Source: Mayamaea pseudoterrestris
Taxonomy: Eukaryota
Direction of reading: 5' to 3'
Assembly: GCA_027923505.1 (NCBI GenBank)
Contig: BROI01000022.1
Location: forward strand, 310,001-374,000
DNA length: 64,000 nucleotides
How positions within the stretch are numbered: position 1 is the stretch's first letter; every line of letters starts with the position of its first letter. Both the position numbers and the translations under genes were made by a program. Positions 52,772-64,000 of this stretch are shown one piece after another. The notes below the pieces were generated by a model, which made no database searches, was not told where the DNA came from, and saw only the letters and a list, made by a program, of their open reading frames with translations.

Positions 52772-53717
52772 ATGCAATTTGCTATGGTAGTAGGTCGCTT
52801 GTTTCCATGTGGTTGCGAGTGGAGAGTGGAGACTATCAACCCGTTGACGTGGAGCTTTTCCTTTTTCAATAAGCGTTAATGAGACGATCGATTATGCGAC
52901 TACTAGATTAAGCCTTTTATATCATGCATTATAAACTAATGACGATGCAGTACTGTTGCTGAAGATGTCGCTCATGGCGTCGTATCCGAATATTGTTCCA
53001 CGACTTAGTAAGACATGGACAGTCGCGAGGGTGCGCTCCCATAAAAAAGTCACCATAAGGTCCTGTCTTTCACTTTGTCCCATAATTTTTATGTCCACGC
53101 CATGGTGTGTCATATTTACGTCTGTTGCAACATCATATATGACCCATTTAATGACGACGAATAAATGCGCTAAATATATGGCATTGCATTCCTCTTCTTG
53201 ACCGCATTGGCGACGACATTGGTAGTAGGACGAAACTGCCTTCGCAGTCAGTTTCGAGTTGCCATTTTTGACAGCCTGCCAGAAAATGCCATAATGGAAG
53301 AAGAGGAAGTTAAAGTGTCGGATCGGCATGACCGCCAATGCAGAGGATCGCTAGCAGTGCAAGTGTTGTATAATTGCTACGGCCCAAATTGCTTGTGTTG
53401 TATCGTCTTGCATATTCTCGTGCTATGGTTTCGCTTGATTTTGGCTTTATACGTCCAAACTGATGTCCAAGGCACAGGTAGGAACAGCACCGGTAGATGT
53501 TGTTGCTAATCTGATCGCCGATTTTGCGGGACATACAGCGCAAAACCAGTGAGACGTTTGTGACGTCATAATAGCGCTGCCGCGCCGCGCGGAGCCATCC
53601 TTTCGTTCCAATTCATTATTCCAAATCCGGACATTCTTCTTGCTCGCCCACCTCTTACTTGTACATACTTCACTGTAACATGCCCACCTAAGGTTTTTCA
53701 AAAGGGGACGGATCGAC

Positions 53718-55523
53718 ATGTCGGCAGTCTTGGAGCGCGAGCGCCGCGCGACGGCGGGCAAACGTATGACGAGTCTGGTTGGTGAAGCACAGCAGCAGGA
53801 CGACGAGTTTTGGGGGCACGATACGTGGCAGGAAGACTCGGAAAGCTACCATAGTAGTTCCGAGGAAGAAGAAAAGGATGAGTTTGATTCTGATTTTGAT
53901 GAAAGTGAAAGCGACAACGATGAAGAAGAGTTGGAACAAGGCGCTAGTGAGGAACGGCAGCTGCAGTTGGAGATTAAGAACCAAAAAAAGCGATCATCGG
54001 CGTACGTCGAGACGGCTCGAGCATTGCACAAGCCGAAAAAGAAACTAAAAGGCAAGCAACTGGTAACTGGAGATGGTTTGAATGCTGGTATAGTCTTAAA
54101 CTTACCAAGTACGGCAGCTCCGCTACCACCACTTCCGGCGCAGCACACAGCATTGCAGGTTCCTTCAGCTTCAGTATCGCTGGCCAAGACTCCAGTCGTG
54201 TTGCCATCACCTGCGCAATCTTTTGGAGTTAAGAAAAATTCAGCTGTTAAAAGCTCTTCGACGGCTATGGCTACTCGGGAACGTCGGGCCACTGCATCGC
54301 GCAGCAAGACTGCTTTAGTAAAGCAGTCGTTAGTCACAGCTGACGAAATAACAAGCGATGGTAAAACAGCGACTGCCAAGGATGACATTATTGATGCGGC
54401 TCATGTTGCAAAGAAACGAAAAGCGTCACAAACTCATCGATTTACGCAGGAGGAACTGCTATTGGAGGCTGCCAATGTGACGGAATCGGAGAATGCCAGA
54501 TGGCTGCTCGCTCGCAAGCGCCATCAGGAGGACATGCAGGAATTTCACAAAGAACAGGCTGCTGCTAGCTCTCGACTTGGATCATCTCAAATCGTTTCGA
54601 GTTACTTATCTAAACGAGGACAACTGAACGTCGTGAAATTTTTTGATATGGGCAGTGTCCCGGATATTTTTAAGAGCCAATTGCTTCCAGTTGCACCTGA
54701 AGTGCACTTATGCGCTATAACTGGCAAACCTGCCAGATATAAAGATCCAAAGACTATGCTCTACTATTCTGATGTTGACGCTTTCAAAGAGCTCAGAAGG
54801 AAGATGGAGGCGGGCGAAATTCCAGTACATCGACTGAAGTCTGTTCCAACACAAGAATCAGCGTCGAGACAGTCCACTGACGATAAATTAGAGGCTACTC
54901 CTACAGTTCCCATGAATGGGTCTAATGCGGTAGGTGTTCGTCTACTGAAAGCAAAGAAAGATGCTTCTAGAATTGGTGGGGAGCAAAAACCATTGCGAAA
55001 GAAGAAAGCAAAGATTGCTGCATCGAGCGACGGCCTCTTAGCAACCTTTGATCCAAATGTTACAAAAGGCTTGAATAGTGCGTCTTTGCTCAAGCCTGCA
55101 TCTTCGTCATTTAAGGAGGCTAGTTTGTCAGTCCCGAGTGGCAAGACGCAGGCTACTGTTTGTCCAACTCTTGAGCCTATTCTTTTGGTTCAGTCTATCT
55201 CGCATAATGGCTCGCATAACGCAATCATGGATACAGACACTCATCAGACAGTACATTTTTCAGCCACGTCTGCGGTCGTCGGTACGCCATTGTCGCCCTC
55301 GTCTGAGCAATCTTTACATCATCTTGACAATGCAGCAGATTTGGCTTTGGCCGACTCTCAACGTTCCGTCGCGTCAAATTCTTCCTCCGGCTCGCGTCGG
55401 GCATCTCCACGTCGACGAAAGCCAAGCAACAAGATATTGCAGAACATTGAGGATACTGGTGCAACTGGCATTCCGTTTTTGGCTGATGCCGATGCCTCGT
55501 CCAACGGAGATGGTGGAGTTTGA
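53718..55523 (+). CDS. VPS72: YL1/Vps72 (SWR1 complex H2A.Z chaperone subunit)
   Basis: RRATAGKRM N-terminus, acidic DEFDSDF, TQEELLLEA..TE.EN, YL1-C motif CAITGKPARYKDPKT. Confidence 0.9.
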   Translation: MSAVLERERRATAGKRMTSLVGEAQQQDDEFWGHDTWQEDSESYHSSSEEEEKDEFDSDFDESESDNDEEELEQGASEERQLQLEIKNQKKRSSAYVETARALHKPKKKLKGKQLVTGDGLNAGIVLNLPSTAAPLPPLPAQHTALQVPSASVSLAKTPVVLPSPAQSFGVKKNSAVKSSSTAMATRERRATASRSKTALVKQSLVTADEITSDGKTATAKDDIIDAAHVAKKRKASQTHRFTQEELLLEAANVTESENARWLLARKRHQEDMQEFHKEQAAASSRLGSSQIVSSYLSKRGQLNVVKFFDMGSVPDIFKSQLLPVAPEVHLCAITGKPARYKDPKTMLYYSDVDAFKELRRKMEAGEIPVHRLKSVPTQESASRQSTDDKLEATPTVPMNGSNAVGVRLLKAKKDASRIGGEQKPLRKKKAKIAASSDGLLATFDPNVTKGLNSASLLKPASSSFKEASLSVPSGKTQATVCPTLEPILLVQSISHNGSHNAIMDTDTHQTVHFSATSAVVGTPLSPSSEQSLHHLDNAADLALADSQRSVASNSSSGSRRASPRRRKPSNKILQNIEDTGATGIPFLADADASSNGDGGV

Positions 55524-55624
55524 ACGCCAAAGGCAACTAATTTACGTCGCTACAGCTACGATACAGTACAAAATAAAACATAGAAATGTATTTCATTTAT
55601 CTCAAGTTCATCATCATCAAATTA

Positions 55625-56344
55625 TTATGCTACTGCTGGGTTAATGTCCTCCTCGGTGACAGTCCAACTCTTTCCATCCTTGTCGACGAATAGTTTGCCT
55701 CTTGCCACGGACTTTTTGGCGCCCGACCAGTCGTCAAGCGCTGGCTGCTCGCTTGGAATGCCAATCACAGTCGCCGTCACAATGTCTTCCGGAAAGTCGT
55801 CGTGACTCACGCTAGAGAATGTAACCTTGGCCTTGGTTTTGACATCCAGCGTCAAAACCATGTGCTCGGCTGCCTTGAGCACTTCATTCAATATCAAGTT
55901 GCCGCCCAAAAAGTTAATTTGAATCTGTTCATAGTCCATGGCGCTTCCTGCACTGTTCAGTGCATCCTTGACTGCCTCCATTGGGCCGTAGTAAATGGCT
56001 TTCTGCAATGTTTCTCCAGGATCGACATAATTTTCTTTGCCAAATCCTTTCGCGATTATCTTGACGTCTCCGACATCTGAAACTGGAGTCACTTTAAAGT
56101 ACCTAGTCAAACTTTTCAATGATGCTTGCGCTTCGCCAGGCTTGTGCTTCACTGTCCCAGACAGCTCCAAGTAGCTTGAATGTGCGAGCAAAACGCCTCC
56201 TTCCAGTGGATCGACGACAAAGTCCGTTTCTTCTGCCCGAATGATCTCGTAGATTGCAGTGGATCGCCGAGACCGGCTGGAAATTATAGAGAATGCATCG
56301 CCCGATTGAAGCGCTAGTAGCAACAAGAGAGTAAGGAGCAACAT
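55625..56344 (-). CDS. Hypothetical protein with bipartite plastid-targeting-like presequence
   Basis: Signal peptide ending GDA-FS, then an S/R-rich transit-like stretch; 239-aa ORF. Confidence 0.75.
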   Translation of the reverse strand: MLLLTLLLLLALQSGDAFSIISSRSRRSTAIYEIIRAEETDFVVDPLEGGVLLAHSSYLELSGTVKHKPGEAQASLKSLTRYFKVTPVSDVGDVKIIAKGFGKENYVDPGETLQKAIYYGPMEAVKDALNSAGSAMDYEQIQINFLGGNLILNEVLKAAEHMVLTLDVKTKAKVTFSSVSHDDFPEDIVTATVIGIPSEQPALDDWSGAKKSVARGKLFVDKDGKSWTVTEEDINPAVA

Positions 56345-56605
56345 GGCGGTGTGGAAGAAAAGGAGTGATGTTTCGTGTTGATGAAAGCAACGCGCGTTTT
56401 GTGGTCGTCATCTCATCGGCACGTCAAAAAACGTCGCACCGGTAATGACACGATTCCGGCGCGAACGCGCGATGATCGAAATTGGCGAGAAGCAGCAACG
56501 GTCGTTTCGCAAAAGTTTGAGACAGCAGAGGGAGAGTTTCAGCCTAGCCAAGACTATTGCAGCATACATTGCGACTAAATCATTGGAGAGACGCCTGTCG
56601 CAGTC

Positions 56606-59600
56606 ATGATAACGCGCAGCAAGGAGCAGAAGCAAGGCGCCGGCCACGACCGAGCCGGAAATGACAACACCAATTTATTCATCAATGCCAACAACAGCAG
56701 CACGTCTAGTACTTTGCAGCCGATTCCATTCAGTTGTATTGCTTCCACTAACTCATTTGGAGGAGATGTACTTAATTTTGCTTCGAGCGACGCTGGAAAG
56801 ATACGCGGCGGTCTTGGCGGCGGCGGCGGCCGCAAAGGCGTGATCAATGCGTTCGGGTCGGCGGCCAGTCCAAGCATATCTGCACGTCTGCAGTCAACTA
56901 CTTTTGACTCATTTCCACCCAAGCCGCCTGCTTCTGGAGGATTTTCCTATCATCAGTACACTGCCAGCGGCGGCGGCGCTTTCTCTTTTGCTTCGGGCAA
57001 GACTGATCCGAACGAACGTTATGCAGCCACGAACGACGCCACTACTTCTTCACCCGCGCTTCGAGATCGGCTTCGCAGCCGCCGTCGCGCCAGTGCTGCT
57101 GCTGCTGTTCATGCAAGCCATGACGGATTCACGACGAGTGCTCAGGGACGCGATGGCAATGCTTTTGTGGGAAAGACTGATCCAAACGAGCGAGGAGCAA
57201 CACCGTCGCTTGTTGAAGAGTTTACTAGTAGTGGATTTGCTTTCTACAATGGAAGCGCAACAAGTAACGCAACTAATGCATCAACTTTTGGGCAAGGAAG
57301 CATTACAGTGGCGCCGATAGCTGCGTGGACAGTGCCGACGCGACAAAGCCAATTGCAAGTTGACGCTGACTTCAAGTACGCCTTGGAACAGCAAGAGCAG
57401 GAGCCAAAGGACGCAAAGAAACGCAAGCAAGCCTTGGAAGAGCAAGAACGCAAGGCGATGACATCAAGCAACACTGGAAAAGCATTTTTGTTTGTCGCCG
57501 ACTTGTTGAAACAGATTGAACAATTCAACAAGCAATATCCCGAATCAAAAATTTCGCCATTGGCTCGCGATGATATGATTCCTCTGCTCGAGCGATTCCT
57601 TTCAAAGCAAGAGGAGCTTCGCGTAGCAGGTTTGAGTACCGAGGTATGCTACGGATATCATTACACAAAAGAGGAGAATCTTTCTCGCATTCAAACGGAC
57701 GGACTTTTGACGCAGCATGAACGCGCATCCAAAAAAATAAAGTCGAATTTCAACGGCGCATTGCATGGAGACGGCATATACACGAGCGATCGTCCCGACA
57801 CTCACCGTGGCCACCCGTATGGTAACATTGGCTTGTTTGTTGCTCGGTTGAAAGGACAGATCTCGGGGGAATCGTCTACTAGTACATTCGTCAGTGGTCA
57901 TGTCGTCGTCTTGCGAAAATCGGACCAATGCGTTCCACTTTTCAAGTATTCCGGCGAGCCCGAACATGTCATTCGCATGTGCCATCAAACTCTCCAGCCC
58001 TTTTTCGATTCGTGGTTTAACAAGGATGCGAATTATCGGTTCGACGCCAATGCTCGCTTGAATTCAGCTGCGTTGACATGGAATTCCTATCAACCTCCAG
58101 CCGCCCCGTTGACTTTTGGGTCGACATTTAGCAGTCAAGCTCAAACGGCTGCCAGTAATTCATCCTCGTACATTCATCACTTGTTTGGTGGTTTTGCGAA
58201 CAATTCAGGAAACGCGAAACCAAGTGCGCCCACCACGTCGGTCCCTTTGTTTGCTACGGGTTCCACCACTCCTTTCGGGGGAAGATCTGCTTATGATACA
58301 ATTGCTGCGAGCAACGCCGCCGGCCGAGGTCCCACCACTTCGGTCCCTTTGTTTGCTACAAGCTCCACCGCTCCTTTCGGAGGAGGATCAGCTTATGATA
58401 CAATTGCTGCGAAAAACGTCGCCGGCCGAGGTCCCACCACTTCGGTCCCTTTGTTTGCTATGGGTTCCACCGCTCCTTCCGGAGGAGTATCTGCTTACGA
58501 TACAATTGCTGCGAAAAACGCCGCCGGCCAAGGCTGGCAACCTGGCGGTTCTTTTGGAGCATCACCTTCCGTCAGTCTATCTACATCGTCACTGTTTGGC
58601 ACATTTGCGTCATCGGCTATAGCGCCTTTTGGGTCAGCTGCCGGATCTGCGAACGTGGTTTCTTTACCTGCAAACGGCGACTCTTACGTTGGAACGTCGT
58701 GTGTCACGACTTCGGCTACGGCTATCAGTGCATCTCGTTTTAAACTATTGTCTGCGACAACGTCCACCGCAGCTGCCCCTGGCTTTGCCTTCAGTGCACA
58801 GTCTTCACCCGCGGCTACAATTTCAACTGCCGCTTTCAGTGGATTCGGCGCACCGGCTTCATATAATTCCGCAGTGCCTGCAATCATTGCAAGCCGCGCC
58901 TTTGGTTTCGGAGCACCATCTGCGACGATTGGTGGTGTTGGCTTCGGCGTTCCGCTTGCTGCGTCTTCCAGCTTGAATGGTACTGATGCGATCCGAACCA
59001 TTCGCTACAACGCGCCCGATCAGCTGAACAATGATGCCAAACAAAACATTGTACCCAGTGTGAGCCCAGTAGGATCTCCCAGCGATGTATGTGTCATCTG
59101 TCTTTATTCACTGGCATCTAAACCGCTTGGAAAGAGTGCTACCTGTGGACACATGTTTCATCATGCCTGCATTTTAGAATCGTTGTCTCATTCGAGTCGA
59201 TGCCCGCTTTGCCAGAAGAACATCGGGACACCGCAAGGCACAATGCCATCTGGCAGCATGACAGTTTCGTTTGACCCGTCGTTGACCTGCAGCGGTCATG
59301 GTCCTGGAACGATCCAAATTGTTTATTCCTTTTCTGATGGAACGCAGAAGTCATATCACGGCAACCCTGGTGTGTCATTTAATGCTACGTCTCGCCTCGC
59401 ATACCTTCCGGACAATGTGCAAGGTCGCGACCTGTTGAAGCGCCTGGAATATGCCTTTTCCCACGGACTCACCTTTACCGTGGGCACCTCGCTGACCAGC
59501 AATGCTCCCAACCAAATCACGTGGGCGTCAATCCATCACAAGACTGACACTTCTGGCGGTGTTCATGGGTATCCGGATGCAAATTTTGATGCCAATTGCA

Positions 59601-59647
59601 ACGGTGAGCTTGATGTGTTGGGCGTTCCGGCTGCCAGCGACTTGTAA
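56606..59647 (+). CDS. Deltex-type RING-DTC E3 ligase with internal PARP/ART-like domain and FG-rich low-complexity regions
   Basis: RING-H2 CVIC...CGHMFHHAC...CPLC, DTC motifs GTMPSGSM, RLAYLPDN, ITWASIHHKT, HGYPD; central YGYHYT...GALHGDGIY motif. Confidence 0.85.
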   Translation: MITRSKEQKQGAGHDRAGNDNTNLFINANNSSTSSTLQPIPFSCIASTNSFGGDVLNFASSDAGKIRGGLGGGGGRKGVINAFGSAASPSISARLQSTTFDSFPPKPPASGGFSYHQYTASGGGAFSFASGKTDPNERYAATNDATTSSPALRDRLRSRRRASAAAAVHASHDGFTTSAQGRDGNAFVGKTDPNERGATPSLVEEFTSSGFAFYNGSATSNATNASTFGQGSITVAPIAAWTVPTRQSQLQVDADFKYALEQQEQEPKDAKKRKQALEEQERKAMTSSNTGKAFLFVADLLKQIEQFNKQYPESKISPLARDDMIPLLERFLSKQEELRVAGLSTEVCYGYHYTKEENLSRIQTDGLLTQHERASKKIKSNFNGALHGDGIYTSDRPDTHRGHPYGNIGLFVARLKGQISGESSTSTFVSGHVVVLRKSDQCVPLFKYSGEPEHVIRMCHQTLQPFFDSWFNKDANYRFDANARLNSAALTWNSYQPPAAPLTFGSTFSSQAQTAASNSSSYIHHLFGGFANNSGNAKPSAPTTSVPLFATGSTTPFGGRSAYDTIAASNAAGRGPTTSVPLFATSSTAPFGGGSAYDTIAAKNVAGRGPTTSVPLFAMGSTAPSGGVSAYDTIAAKNAAGQGWQPGGSFGASPSVSLSTSSLFGTFASSAIAPFGSAAGSANVVSLPANGDSYVGTSCVTTSATAISASRFKLLSATTSTAAAPGFAFSAQSSPAATISTAAFSGFGAPASYNSAVPAIIASRAFGFGAPSATIGGVGFGVPLAASSSLNGTDAIRTIRYNAPDQLNNDAKQNIVPSVSPVGSPSDVCVICLYSLASKPLGKSATCGHMFHHACILESLSHSSRCPLCQKNIGTPQGTMPSGSMTVSFDPSLTCSGHGPGTIQIVYSFSDGTQKSYHGNPGVSFNATSRLAYLPDNVQGRDLLKRLEYAFSHGLTFTVGTSLTSNAPNQITWASIHHKTDTSGGVHGYPDANFDANCNGELDVLGVPAASDL
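58229..58534 (+). repeat. Three 102-bp (34-aa) in-frame tandem repeats inside the Deltex-like gene
   Basis: PTTSVPLFA...SAYDTIAA.N.AG units start at 58229, 58331, 58433. Confidence 0.9.
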
Positions 59648-59884
59648 AAAAGTTTTCCCGGCATAATGTGCAATGTGCGTTGTTCGCAAACAGTAGACAC
59701 GACAATGGCATTCTTTTACTAATAGTAATAATACTCACGATACTAATAAACTGGTTTGAGCTTGAAAATCGGTTTTACATTAAGCATAAGGTGAGGAGTG
59801 GGCCTGCCACATATGACAGATCATGGCTACCATGAACTCAATACTTCTGTTAATTCACTTCAAAACGATATGCGAACGTAGACT

Positions 59885-61311
59885 TTACATTGTGTAAAAG
59901 GCAAGCTCCTTTTCGCGGTTGTTGACCGCCTTCTTGTATGCCGCGTCAAAGTCCTTTGCCAAAACTACGTACCGATTCTCACGGACAGCCTGCAAGCCTG
60001 CTTCGGCGCAGATGGATGAAATGTCTGCGGAAGAAATCTTTTCAGATCTATTAATGTAGTCTTCCAAATCAAGCTCCTCCGAAAGGTTCATTTTCGACGT
60101 GGCAGCCTGAAAGACAAGTCGTTTTTGACGACGATCTGGAACAGGAAACTCAATCTTTCGGTCCAAACGACCAGGACGAAGCAACGCTGGGTCTAATGTA
60201 TCCGCACGATTTGTCGCCATGATCACCTTGACGTTTGTCTGCTGGTCAAAGCCATCCAACTGTGTAAGTAGCTCGAGCAAGATGCGCTGCACCTCGCGGT
60301 CAGCGCCAGTCTGTGCATCAAATCGTTTCGTCGCAATGGCGTCAATCTGAAACAAGCCAATCACGTTAGTTAGGCCCGACGCATTTGTAGCAACCAACCT
60401 TCATACCATGCACGCAAACGTACCTCATCAATGAAAACCACGCAGGGACTGTTTTCTCGCGCCAGGCGGAAAACATCTCGCACCATACGAGGGCCTTCTC
60501 CCAAGTACTTTTGCACAAACTCACTTCCAACCATGGAAATAAAGGTCGCAGATGTTGCATTCGCCACAGCCTTGGCCATCATTGTCTTGCCTGTACCTGG
60601 CGGTCCATACAGCAAGACGCCACGCGGCGGGTCAATACCAATCTGCGTGTACAAATGATGCTGCAGGAGCGGAAGCTCAATTGCTTCGCGAACCTCTTGC
60701 TTCTGCATATCCATTCCTCCAATATCCTTGTAGGTAACATTCGGCTTTTCCGTCATGAGCTTGACGGTCGAGTCTGACTCTGGCGGCAAGATATCCACAA
60801 CCGAGTGCGAGTGGCGGTGCAAGGCAATCGAAGTGTTTGGCTTCAAGAGCTCGCGATCCAAGGTGGAAAGGATGCGAACGTAGTAATTGGACCCAGCCGT
60901 TGACGAAATGATGCCATAATTGGCGTCGATCATTTCATTAAATTGGCCAATGACCAGCGGAACGCTTTGAATGCGGCGTATCTCTTCCTTGGCGCGAAGG
61001 AGCTCTCGCTGCAAGTGGCGCATCTCGTCCTTTAGATATTCCTCCTGCAGTTCGACAAACTCAACCTGACCTTCGAGGCGCTTGAGCTCCTGATAGAGGT
61101 CGAGTTCAGCTTCCTGTCCAGCTTTACTGTCCTTGCTATCTGTCGCAACAGCCGTCTTGATTTTAGTCTAACGAGACGATTCAAAAAGCGTGAGAGACGA
61201 AAGCACCAGCATCGAAAAGTCGGGCATGCACCCGCCTCGCCTTTGCCTCGCCTCATTCTTCTCTGGTCTTACCATTCCATCGTAAGCGGAAAGAACAGCC
61301 GCAGATGCCAT
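59885..61311 (-). CDS. RPT3: 26S proteasome AAA-ATPase subunit RPT3 (PSMC4); 3 exons
   Basis: [68 protein letters not shown] introns about 61272-61168 and 60424-60347. Confidence 0.96.
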
Positions 61312-61639
61312 ATTTGTCACTCTTTAGTGGTGATAGATAAAAGAGACGAAGCTACGGTAGCGATGTGATGATGCCTTTTCCGCCATTGTCGATCCGGACG
61401 GATGTCCAACGAAGTTGGATCTCACAGGGTGTCTTTTCATTGCCGCAGCGATGCCGGTCTCTATGCGACACGGCCTCTTGCGTCGCATGCGGCCTATCGC
61501 AGTTCATTTGCACCATTGCAATCACTCCAAACCATTTGGTAAATAAACAAACGAAGAGATTATGAGTACCTCAAAAAGGCCAGTCCTTACTACTTCAAGT
61601 CACCATAAAGAACCATCAAATCCACAACAATCCGTCGTC

Positions 61640-64000
61640 ATGCAAACGCCGCACACGATGCGCCTACTCAAACTCGTCCAGGACGGAACGTACGAACATG
61701 CCCAGCAGGCGACGCAAATCTTGGTGCGCCAAGTGGGTCCTACACTGTCGCCAACACTGCTGTGGGACTTGATTGGTCGACTGGCCGAGTGCTGCATCTT
61801 TCATAGCGACTGGAAGTCGCGAGTGAATGCTAGCTACGGAGTGCAGCAAATGGTCATGTTGACGTGCAGCAGCAGCGACAGCAACGACGCGAGTGATACT
61901 GACGAATCGTCTATCAATATTATCGACCACCAAATGGAGGAGTTGTTTGAAAAACAAGACAATTCGTTGACGGTAGAATCCATTTTGGAGTGCTTGGGAC
62001 AAATATTGGCGGAAGGTACACCACTCTACTCCAAGAGTGAGCACGACGATTCCGTCAATATGAGTCAAGACGACGCTGAACTGCTTGCCTTTGACGAAGA
62101 GCGATTGAACAACAATGTCGACAATGAAGAATCAGCAGCGACCAACGATCAAACCGACTCGTTCCTGCAGCAGCGAGTGCGAATGCAGCAAAGTATACTG
62201 CAACGGCGCTTAGGATTGATGGGGTTTGGACGTATCGGCATTGACACGGACGACTTGATCGCGAATGTTGTCACGAGTCGTGACTTGCTGCCGCCGGACG
62301 CGAAAGGTACAGACGAGCCAGTCGCCAAGCGCCGACGACGAATAGCCGACAACAACAAGTTTGATCCCAAGCTACGAGTCTTGCTGGTTTTGGAAATGGA
62401 GGAACAGTTACGGCGTCGTGGTCGCGAAGAGTCTGACATTCAATCCATACGCAGCAATCAACTAAATGATACTAGCAGTGACATTAGCAATCCACAATCT
62501 CTCTTGGCATCCGAAGTCATTTACCGCATGCTCGACCCCAAGTGGGAAATTCGACACGGCGCAGCACTGGCGTGCCTTGGCTTGGTGCGGGCGTGGTACG
62601 TGCAGCAGCAGCAGCAGCAGCAGCACGAAGCGGCGCCATTAACGTTTGGAGCATGGTTGCAGCAAGTCATGGCGCGGTGCTTGTGCGTTTTGGCGCTGGA
62701 CCGGTTTGGCGACTTTGGTTTGGGTGGTGTTGTGGCGCCGGTGCGAGAGTCGGTGGGGCAGCTACTGAGCGTACTGGTAGCAATGGCTCCCAGAAATGTG
62801 CAGGAATGTACGTTTCATGTGTTATTTCGACTCGTTGAGTATCATGAAGACTGGGAGGTTAGGTTTGGAGCTTTGATTGCGTTCAAGTACATTGTTGTAC
62901 TGTATCTGAAAGAGTCGATGACTCCAACAAGTAATACAAATGTATCAGATTCGAGCTGTTCCGACGCAGTTTGGTGTAGCGTACTTGTTGAACGAATAGC
63001 AAGAAAGGCGAGTGACTGCTTAAAGGATAAAAGTGATGACGTGAAAGGCATTGCAGCAATAATTCTTGTCGAGTACATACTGCAATCGCCTGCAGTGCCG
63101 GATGTGGCATTTCAAGCTGCTGGCCCGCTTTGGAGGGCATTGCGAAGCGTTGATAATCTGAGCTCATGTTTATCAGATTTATCAATACTGTTGTCACTTC
63201 TGATCGAACATGATATAGAAAGGGTGTTGCACGAACTGCAGACTGGAAAGGGATTGGAAGGGTTGGCGATTGAGGAGGAATCACTCGACGCGGTTTCGCG
63301 ATTCATTCTACGACTGCTCGACTCATCAATGGCGTCGGTGAAACATTCCGGAATGCGGTGCATAAACGCCTTGGCGAGACCACTCAGCGATAGAATCAAC
63401 CAGACAATTTTGCACTCTGAGGATGTCGTTGCTCAAATAGGCGTTTATACAGCAGTGCTGTACCGAGTGTTTGAGACCTTTTTTGACAATGATTGTGAGA
63501 CAACGCCGAATGGTTATGAGTGTGCGCAGACATACAACGAATTGAGAGATCGAGCTTGGACGCGTTTGTCTTCTGGGAGCATTAATCTGTTGCAGCATTC
63601 CGGAGCGCAGCGATCGATTGAACTGGGTCTCGTGATGCGGTACTTTGGTGTAAAGTCGTCTCGCAGTCGAGTTAGCGACTCGTTCGTTGAAAGCACTCGA
63701 GCTGCAGGAGCTTTCAGCAGCTTTCTTCGAGCAGCTTGGAAGATGAATGAGCCAGTTCTCGCTCCTGTATTGAAGCTTGCGCTCATCGTTTTTCTACGGT
63801 CGCCCTGGCTCAATCATTTTGAAGCAGCCTGTCATCTTATCGCAGACATAGCACCTATTTTCACTGCCACAAAGGCTTTCTGGAATATTATGGATGAGCT
63901 CACCGATTACCTGGTCTCAAGGCACCCAAACTGTTTACTATATGACACATTTGCGAGCGCGGAGAATCTAAATACTCTCGAAGATGCTGCCATTATTAAA
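61640..64000 (+). CDS. BTAF1: BTAF1/MOT1 (TBP-associated SNF2 ATPase) N-terminal HEAT region; runs off the window
   Basis: Manual translation gives MQTPHTMRLLKLVQDG, SDWKSRVNA, DPKWEIRHGA, LCVLALDRFGDF, VVAPVRESVGQLL and WEVRFGALIAFKY, which match Mot1 N-terminal motifs. The ATPase domain is outside the window. Confidence 0.85.
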   Translation, partial: MQTPHTMRLLKLVQDGTYEHAQQATQILVRQVGPTLSPTLLWDLIGRLAECCIFHSDWKSRVNASYGVQQMVMLTCSSSDSNDASDTDESSINIIDHQMEELFEKQDNSLTVESILECLGQILAEGTPLYSKSEHDDSVNMSQDDAELLAFDEERLNNNVDNEESAATNDQTDSFLQQRVRMQQSILQRRLGLMGFGRIGIDTDDLIANVVTSRDLLPPDAKGTDEPVAKRRRRIADNNKFDPKLRVLLVLEMEEQLRRRGREESDIQSIRSNQLNDTSSDISNPQSLLASEVIYRMLDPKWEIRHGAALACLGLVRAWYVQQQQQQQHEAAPLTFGAWLQQVMARCLCVLALDRFGDFGLGGVVAPVRESVGQLLSVLVAMAPRNVQECTFHVLFRLVEYHEDWEVRFGALIAFKYIVVLYLKESMTPTSNTNVSDSSCSDAVWCSVLVERIARKASDCLKDKSDDVKGIAAIILVEYILQSPAVPDVAFQAAGPLWRALRSVDNLSSCLSDLSILLSLLIEHDIERVLHELQTGKGLEGLAIEEESLDAVSRFILRLLDSSMASVKHSGMRCINALARPLSDRINQTILHSEDVVAQIGVYTAVLYRVFETFFDNDCETTPNGYECAQTYNELRDRAWTRLSSGSINLLQHSGAQRSIELGLVMRYFGVKSSRSRVSDSFVESTRAAGAFSSFLRAAWKMNEPVLAPVLKLALIVFLRSPWLNHFEAACHLIADIAPIFTATKAFWNIMDELTDYLVSRHPNCLLYDTFASAENLNTLEDAAIIK

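Follow-up and report, generated by a model that had tools for sequence, protein, structure and literature searches.

In animals, ADP-ribosylation is coupled to ubiquitination through DTX3L and PARP9 (with PARP14), which pair a RING-DTC ubiquitin ligase with an ADP-ribosyltransferase (ART) of the PARP fold. The partners are described as separate polypeptides joined by KH domains (PMC13224862), and a 2026 preprint (10.64898/2026.04.23.720386) presents the two systems as having become interconnected during metazoan evolution. Cross-talk between mono-ADP-ribosylation and ubiquitination by Deltex proteins is a young field, in which almost all work has been done on vertebrates. Here we analyse a gene in a 64,000-nucleotide stretch of the diatom Mayamaea pseudoterrestris (GenBank assembly GCA_027923505.1, contig BROI01000022.1, positions 310,001 to 374,000, forward strand; this whole stretch is called the window, and positions are counted from its first letter). 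Its product, referred to below as the fusion protein, carries a predicted PARP-fold domain and a RING-DTC module in one chain. An original prediction, made from the letters of the window, had taken positions 56606 to 59647 as coding for a single protein, and this is exactly what is found there. The principal features are as follows.

56606..59647, + strand: whole gene (P0001), a single uninterrupted open reading frame (ORF) of 1013 codons plus stop
57440..58033, + strand: PARP-fold ART-like domain, residues 279–476, predicted from AlphaFold2, Foldseek, VIA-align and conservation
59087..59215, + strand: RING-H2 finger, residues 828–870, with ligands C829, C832, C847, H849, H852, C855, C866 and C869 (zf-RING_2, E = 2e-8)
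59234..59626, + strand: DTC domain, residues 877–1007 (Pfam), with H977 at 59534–59536, H987 at 59564–59566 and E1001 at 59606–59608

In order along the chain, a disordered N-terminus and a degenerate helix of the MIU (motif interacting with ubiquitin) type precede the PARP-fold domain, which is followed by an FG-rich disordered linker, the RING-H2 finger and the DTC domain.

Comparison with described systems

The fusion protein shares the conserved DTC active-site residues with the DTX3L–PARP9 complex, but it is one chain, in which Pfam searches found no KH, RRM, macro or WWE domain. Its N-terminal half resembles human PARP10, an H-Y-I mono-ART with ubiquitin-interaction motifs that scores Z 11.7 in the VIA-align structure search described below; PARP10, however, has H-G-T as its motif 1 and no E3 module, whereas the ubiquitin motif of the fusion protein is of the MIU type and degenerate, and sequence similarity between the two is below detection. 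The best sequence matches of the RING-DTC module are DTX1, DTX2 and DTX4, and its His-His-Glu set is that of DTX2. DTX1, DTX2 and DTX4 carry N-terminal WWE domains that read ADP-ribose; in the fusion protein a putative writer domain occupies this place, and the Pfam families matched are RING-type fingers and DTC only.

Single chains that combine a PARP with an E2-like or RING-like module have been described, namely PARP6/8-like proteins with a UBCc domain in fungi, moss and a green alga, and a U-box-macro-PARP of Dictyostelium (PMC4245714, PMC2964712). The family treated below also has an E2-bearing member (P0176), but the PARP domains described in those sources are canonical PF00644 and are presented there without DTC, which has ADP-ribose itself as its substrate. 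The word Deltex is absent from the main texts of both surveys, one of which found no PARP by BLAST in the diatoms Phaeodactylum and Thalassiosira pseudonana (PMC2964712), while the other calls these organisms ‘seemingly PARPless’ (PMC4245714). The SidE effectors of Legionella likewise combine, in one polypeptide, ART activity and NAD+ to make a non-canonical ubiquitin linkage (PMC11668277); as presented in that source their chemistry, phosphoribosyl ubiquitination, is unrelated, and they are bacterial proteins without RING or DTC, so that the analogy is functional only.

Neither ‘fusion’ nor ‘fused’ occurs in the main texts of the preprint on DTX3L–PARP9 co-evolution (10.64898/2026.04.23.720386) and the PARP14 Perspective (PMC13224862), and we found no description of a PARP–Deltex fusion in diatoms, stramenopiles or algae in the main texts of the open-access literature. 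The novelty of the present case, as judged from sequence, is that domains which animals pair as separate proteins recur as a one-chain fusion in a family never annotated as an ADP-ribosyltransferase.

Recurrence of the fusion and transcript evidence

A HMMER search with residues 279–500 returned at least 526 representative clusters at E ≤ 1e-3, of which 352 had E ≤ 1e-10; the PARP-fold domain therefore belongs to a large family and is not an orphan. When a profile of 30 short family members (alignment A1, also used for structure prediction) was run against a set of 5.8 billion proteins, all 50 matches listed were family members, and none of these 50 was a PF00644 protein. DTC was present in 48 of 150 representatives (31 of the 75 at E ≤ 1e-3, 16 of the 74 at E ≤ 1e-5, and P0002 from its precomputed Pfam record), a further 11 had RING without DTC, and many of the remainder were short fragments from contigs of 1–3 kb. 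The single chain of ART-like and Deltex parts that had been proposed for this locus thus reappears, in the same order, in 48 of 150 representatives searched for their architecture, and some fused relatives have short linkers (P0051, for instance, is 420 aa long). Judged by these architectures, fusion of the PARP-fold domain to RING-DTC is the rule in this family and not an accident. The other partners are an E2 domain (P0176), TAZ zinc fingers (P0008, P0118 and P0137), a Pfam UIM (P0135) and MORN repeats (P0131), assignments that again suggest links with the ubiquitin system or with the nucleus.

Members with a named organism are all from diatoms: Mayamaea pseudoterrestris, where the protein is labelled ‘E3 ubiquitin-protein ligase dtx3l’, and Epithemia clementina, where it is ‘hypothetical’. 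The other source labels in the family are ‘deltex-like protein’ and ‘hypothetical protein’, and ADP-ribosyltransferase appears in none of the source names of labelled members.

Recurrence also bears on whether the gene model is an artefact, that is, a chance read-through of two adjacent genes, or an ORF in which an intron left unspliced passes for the linker. For the 315 residues of the linker there are no homologues, and among three small sequencing runs that were compared (X1–X3), none of them recorded as RNA, no contig spans the whole ORF. X3 nevertheless holds spliced RNA, since two GT..AG joints in it fall within the adjacent proteasome gene, and neither it nor the other two runs has a read joint inside the fusion ORF, of which X3 covers three pieces at low depth (56526-56764, 58799-59033 and 59062-59365). 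If stops fall at 3/64 per codon, a run of 1013 open codons would arise by chance with a probability of 7.6e-22; the linker keeps the reading frame, and the length of its repeat unit, 102 nt, is divisible by three. Together with the same domain order in relatives, including those with short linkers, this makes an artefact very improbable. The run data are compatible with one mRNA; recurrence in relatives, as read from their sequences, is the stronger argument for a single chain.

The RING-DTC module

The match to the Pfam DTC model (PF18102) scores 123.8 bits (cut-off 25; E = 7e-36) and extends over model positions 1–133 of 133; the RING finger, which ends at residue 870, lies directly N-terminal of the DTC domain, which starts at residue 877. 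In an alignment of 34 full-length relatives (A2), seven of the eight RING ligands are invariant and the position of H852 is His in 32. phmmer searches with RING-DTC gave E = 2.1e-32 for DTX2 (6y22), 1.2e-29 for DTX1 and 8.4e-25 for DTX3L. In the HMMER alignment to 6y22, H977, H987 and E1001 align with H582, H594 and E608 of DTX2, and all three are kept. His582 and Glu608 of DTX2 are described as catalytic for ubiquitination of ADP-ribose and His594 as an ADP-ribose contact, with His707, Glu733 and Tyr719 as the respective equivalents in DTX3L (PMC11460948); the DTC domain of the fusion protein, with His987 in the place of Tyr719, is thus of the DTX2 type. According to the same source, the smallest fragment with activity is RING-DTC, and ubiquitin is added at the ribose 3'-hydroxyl. 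The fusion protein is among the intact majority of A2, in which His977 is retained in 28 of 34, His987 in 28 and Glu1001 in 29. The C-terminal RING-H2 plus DTC that had been recognized from the sequence is therefore borne out by Pfam matches above cut-offs, by the eight ligands and by intact pocket residues.

Six of the 34 relatives (P0016, P0020, P0034, P0038, P0044 and P0045) have Pro for the first catalytic His of DTC (IPHK in place of IHHK), and five of these six also lack the catalytic Glu, as if ubiquitination of ADP-ribose had been given up together within one sub-group.

A further conserved element lies just ahead of the RING finger.

59000..59017, + strand: pre-RING motif I799-R-Y801-N-A803-P804 (I-x-Y-x-A-P), from conservation in A2

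Within A2, Y801 is found in 34 of 34 sequences, P804 in 32 and A803 in 31, and in the model of the relative P0051 this segment is a confident beta-strand. We know of no described role for the motif in Deltex proteins.

Fold of the central domain

Neither Pfam nor the PDB sequences gave a match above noise for region 251–500 of the fusion protein, and searches of the central region against PADLOC and NCBIfam gave nothing meaningful. Structure prediction was more informative. With A1 as input, AlphaFold2 modelled the domain as three N-terminal helices and a beta core, with a mean pLDDT (predicted local distance difference test) of 88.6, a predicted template modelling score (pTM) of 0.84 and disorder only beyond residue ~478. 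Foldseek returned 175 PDB matches at E ≤ 1e-3, and the 36 listed were all PARP-type, among them PARP12 (the best, 8.7e-6), PARP13, PARP10, PARP14, PARP15, tankyrases, the TASOR pseudo-PARP and PARP1. VIA-align, a structure search independent of Foldseek, was run over 48,161 chains and placed PARP15 first (Z 12.2, 142 residues aligned, root-mean-square deviation 3.4), followed by PARP13 (11.8) and PARP10 (11.7), and then by the plant proteins RCD1 and SRO1, TASOR, tankyrases, PARP1–4 and PARP16; the top 17 rows were all PARP-type (Z 12.2–7.7), while DarT1 scored 5.2 and bacterial ART toxins about 4.

Sequence comparison of relatives points in the same direction. Sub-threshold matches to PF00644, whose gathering score is 26.7 bits, were found in 14 of the 30 A1 members at E ≤ 1 (best 1.4e-4), and matches at E ≤ 1e-3 in 2 of 75 family representatives. 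The other recurrent or notable weak Pfam matches of A1 members were to ART-superfamily models only (Tox-ART-HYD1, Tpt1/KptA and DarT, the last matched by one member at 0.0024). The A1 profile matched DarT1 at motif 1 with E = 0.01, the only link to a solved structure in the significant range; P0073 and P0014, two relatives with weak Pfam PARP matches, gave no PARP alignment against PDB sequences. A PARP cluster was also the first match in the ESM Atlas (score 0.91, 155 shared features), although this is below the reliability mark of the tool and serves as a lead only. From the PARP-type structural matches, together with the weak ART-superfamily sequence matches, we conclude that the central domain has, as modelled, a PARP-type ART fold, in agreement with the PARP/ART-like domain of the original prediction. 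It would then belong to a PARP-like family that is missed by Pfam's PARP model.

The DarT links raise a different possibility, that the domain modifies nucleic acid as DarT does and that DTC then ubiquitylates ADP-ribosylated or free 3' ends, so that the mark is placed on DNA or RNA. DarT1, reached by the A1 profile, is an ART acting on thymidine in single-stranded DNA (ssDNA); 3' ends of ssDNA and single-stranded RNA (ssRNA) are reported to be ubiquitinated by DTX3L RING-DTC with the same pocket and residues (PMC11460948); and ‘R’ targets are given for PARP10, 11 and 15 in the table of PMC7955679. PARPs, however, match the overall fold far better (Z about 12) than DarT1 does, and Pfam detects no nucleic-acid-binding domain in the fusion protein. 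Its DTC domain, moreover, has the DTX2-like His987 and not the Tyr of DTX3L, and PMC11460948 reports ubiquitination of ssDNA by DTX3L and DTX3 only. We regard action on nucleic acid as improbable.

Putative active-site residues of the PARP-fold domain

The candidate catalytic residues were placed by their order and spacing in the motifs and by strand order.

57659–57661 (H352), 57779–57781 (Y392) and 57902–57904 (V433), + strand: putative triad

The sequence strings quoted in the original prediction all occur in the protein where it placed them: YGYHYT begins at Y349 (nt 57650), GDGIY ends at Y392, GHVVVLRKSDQCVPLF ends at nt 57943 and, upstream of the domain, DADFKYALEQQEQE begins at D253 (nt 57362). 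The NAD+-binding His of motif 1, with a Ser or Thr two residues on, is present as H352 and T354, and the Tyr of motif 2 (Y-[FL]-[AST]) as Y392-T-S. Among 151 family sequences, on which all conservation counts for this domain are based, His352, Thr354, Gly388 and Tyr392 are each found in 150, Gly390 in 151 and Gln441 in 143, and a second aromatic residue at position 405 in 142 (Tyr in 102, Phe in 40), Y405 being the residue here.

The position of the catalytic Glu was fixed by register, eight residues before the invariant Gln441, and is Val433 in the fusion protein. Glu occupies it in 46 of 145 scorable members, and Met, Leu, Val, Ile or Phe in most of the others. His432 was considered as a substitute for the Glu and rejected, since the family register gives its neighbour Val433. 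The PARP signature with His and Tyr present and Glu absent, as first proposed, is thus what is found. On a FastTree phylogeny of 144 domains (the trait column was kept in the alignment; 7 of the 151 sequences were left out, six without the Gln column and one under 150 aa), the Glu or non-Glu state changes 5 times, against a mean of 39.2 when states are shuffled, and none of 500 shuffles was as low. In this tree the fusion protein falls among the non-Glu members, with P0003 as its sister.

The division of the family into Glu and non-Glu members is the same as that among PARPs. Active human mono-ARTs are tabulated as H-Y-I, H-Y-L or H-Y-Y (PMC7955679), and PARP14 is described as limited to mono-ADP-ribosylation by a Leu at the Glu position (PMC13224862). 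Inactive human PARPs listed in PMC7955679 have lost the His or the Tyr (PARP13 is Y-Y-V, PARP9 Q-Y-T and TASOR L-Y-Q), so that the domain studied here, which keeps both, differs from that of PARP9. Because active human mono-ARTs read H-Y-I/L/Y, the H352-Y392-V433 domain looks, by its sequence, like a mono-ART.

Several findings weigh against an active writer in this chain. PF00644 gave no match to the fusion protein itself even at E ≤ 10. Non-catalytic PARP-like domains ranked high in the VIA-align search (PARP13 11.8, RCD1 10.9, TASOR 10.6 and SRO1 10.6). The residue after the motif-1 His is Tyr353, and in the family it is Y in 123, W in 12, H in 7, F in 6 and N in 3 of the 151 sequences; Gly directly follows the His in none of the 151, and motif 1 here reads H-Y-T and not H-G-[ST], the form reported for all active human PARPs (PMC7955679). 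The equivalence of Val433 with the PARP Glu comes from motif order, spacing and strand order and not from a residue-level structural alignment. To these are added the lack of a contig spanning the ORF and, in the upstream MIU-type helix, Q262 in a position where A2 has Leu, Ile, Met or Val in 29 of 34 sequences, with 3 gaps.

Much of this would fit the main alternative, a domain that is a pseudo-enzyme, serving as an NAD+/ADP-ribose reader or docking module like PARP9, PARP13, TASOR or RCD1, with all the chemistry left to RING-DTC, whose substrates would be ADP-ribose made by other enzymes, free NAD+/ADP-ribose or the 3' ends of nucleic acids. Mutation of the motif-1 Gly of PARP10, Gly888, to Trp gives the standard catalytically inactive mutant (G888W; PMC9959937), and the fusion protein has an aromatic residue at this place in addition to lacking the Glu. 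The partner of DTX3L, PARP9, is itself presented as an ART without activity, and RING-DTC on its own as sufficient to form ubiquitin-ADP-ribose in vitro (PMC11460948, PMC13224862); non-catalytic PARP-like domains nearly equal active ones in the fold search. Yet an aromatic residue after the His is compatible with NAD+ binding, because the aligned motif is H-F-T in DarT1, whose crystal structure contains NAD+. His352, Thr354, Gly388, Gly390 and Tyr392 are present in 150–151 of 151 sequences, whereas the human pseudo-PARPs listed above lack the His or the Tyr, and the Glu is kept in one third of the family. We therefore consider a pseudo-enzyme rather unlikely, although, from its motif 1, the NAD+ site must differ from the canonical PARP site.

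Proposed mechanism and significance

On balance, and from sequence and model together, we favour the reading that the fusion protein is a single-chain mono-ADP-ribose writer and ubiquitin-ADP-ribose ligase. The PARP-fold domain would bind NAD+ through His352, Tyr392 and Tyr405, and with Val433 replacing the chain-elongating Glu it would modify a target, or itself, with one ADP-ribose unit, in the manner of human H-Y-I/L mono-ARTs. The DTC pocket (H977, H987 and E1001) would then bind that ADP-ribose while the RING finger holds E2~ubiquitin, and ubiquitin would be esterified to the ribose 3'-hydroxyl, giving a ubiquitin-ADP-ribose mark from one polypeptide. The long linker could tether both activities to the same substrate or neighbourhood, and in relatives in which the upstream MIU-type helix is intact, this helix may hold ubiquitin or ubiquitylated products. 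A role in defence or stress signalling had also been suggested for the protein; we found nothing in support of it.

More broadly, we propose, as a tentative extension, that a large radiation of PARP-fold enzymes tied to RING-DTC, E2 domains and MIU helices lies hidden in diatoms, and that the fusion protein is a natural single-chain mono-ADP-ribose writer and ubiquitylator within it. If this is true, hybrid ubiquitin-ADP-ribose signalling would be ancient or convergent and not a metazoan invention, and the protein would offer a minimal study system in which one recombinant product could reconstitute the whole reaction. By the ‘Rosetta stone’ argument, recurrent covalent fusion also speaks for substrates shared by the writer and the ubiquitin-ADP-ribose ligase, and it would extend their coupling outside animals.

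N-terminal region, ubiquitin-binding-like helix and linker

The remaining parts of the chain are listed below.

56606..57355, + strand: N-terminal low-complexity region, residues 1–250, rich in S/A/G/T (from composition; no Pfam family)
57368..57403, + strand: MIU/UIM-like motif D255-F-K-Y-A259-L-E-Q262-Q263-E-Q-E266 (in register with the family motif)
57416..57427, + strand: basic patch K271-K-R-K274 between the MIU-like motif and the PARP-fold domain (from sequence)
58046..58990, + strand: linker rich in A/S/G/T, residues 481–795 (from composition; no Pfam family above noise)
58229..58533, + strand: three tandem 102-nt (34-aa) repeats in the linker, residues 542–643 (Tandem Repeats Finder, TRF)

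Among the 119 family members with at least 40 residues upstream of the PARP-fold domain, 70 have the core of a motif D-x-x-Phi-A-x-x-Phi-Q-x-x-E in that region. An MIU is a helical motif with a central Ala and a conserved Leu-Gln pair, flanked by acidic residues, and these relatives agree with it. The motif occurs 106 times in 23,064 upstream residues and 5 times in 19,969 downstream residues, the last copy lies a median of 19 residues ahead of the domain, and the relative P0002 has three perfect copies. In the fusion protein D255, Y258, A259, Q263 and E266 fit the pattern, while the conserved Leu is replaced by Q262; in the canonical MIU, according to PMC5824887, the highly conserved core consists of a Leu-Gln pair. 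Pfam UIM gave no match in the fusion protein. The MIU-resembling helix of the original prediction is thus in register with a real family motif, but its key Leu is missing, and it counts as a real homologous element in weakened form. Ubiquitin binding by D255–E266 is, from its sequence, not to be counted on. The KKRK patch (K271–K274) that follows could be a nuclear localization signal.

The 315-residue linker contains 11 FG dipeptides where 2.5 are expected (none of 2000 shuffles reached 11) and 5% charged residues, and TRF reports its repeats with period 102, 3.0 copies and 89% matches. Its length, low charge, FG content and repeats suggest a flexible tether. The linker of P0002 is Pro-rich instead, so that the FG-rich form looks lineage-specific. 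In the model of P0051, a compact full-length relative (mean pLDDT 90.6, pTM 0.57), the domains are confident and their mutual arrangement is not; this pTM gives no ground for claiming that they are held in a fixed arrangement.

In composition the linker is nucleoporin-like. In the N-terminal region the octapeptide GKTDPNER occurs twice, at residues 131–138 (56996–57019) and 189–196 (57170–57193), each time after a Gly/Ala/Phe-rich stretch.

Neighbouring genes

The gene is flanked upstream by a gene for a YL1-type nuclear protein and downstream, on the other strand, by one for a proteasomal AAA-ATPase; no second copy of the PARP-fold or RING-DTC domain was found within the 64-kb window. A divergently oriented ORF of 239 aa (55625–56344, − strand) lies 262 nt upstream of the fusion gene; it matched no Pfam family, and its product, which begins with a hydrophobic leader (MLLLTLLLLLALQSG...), may be secreted or plastid-targeted. 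Contigs of X1–X3 diverge by ~1–5% from positions 53500–62500 of the window at many sites, some of them within the fusion ORF, which indicates another allele or strain of the same organism. The AAA-ATPase gene (59885–61273, − strand) has two short introns of 77 and 105 nt, with GT..AG ends on the minus strand, and both are confirmed by joints in X3 (60346>60424 and 61167>61273).

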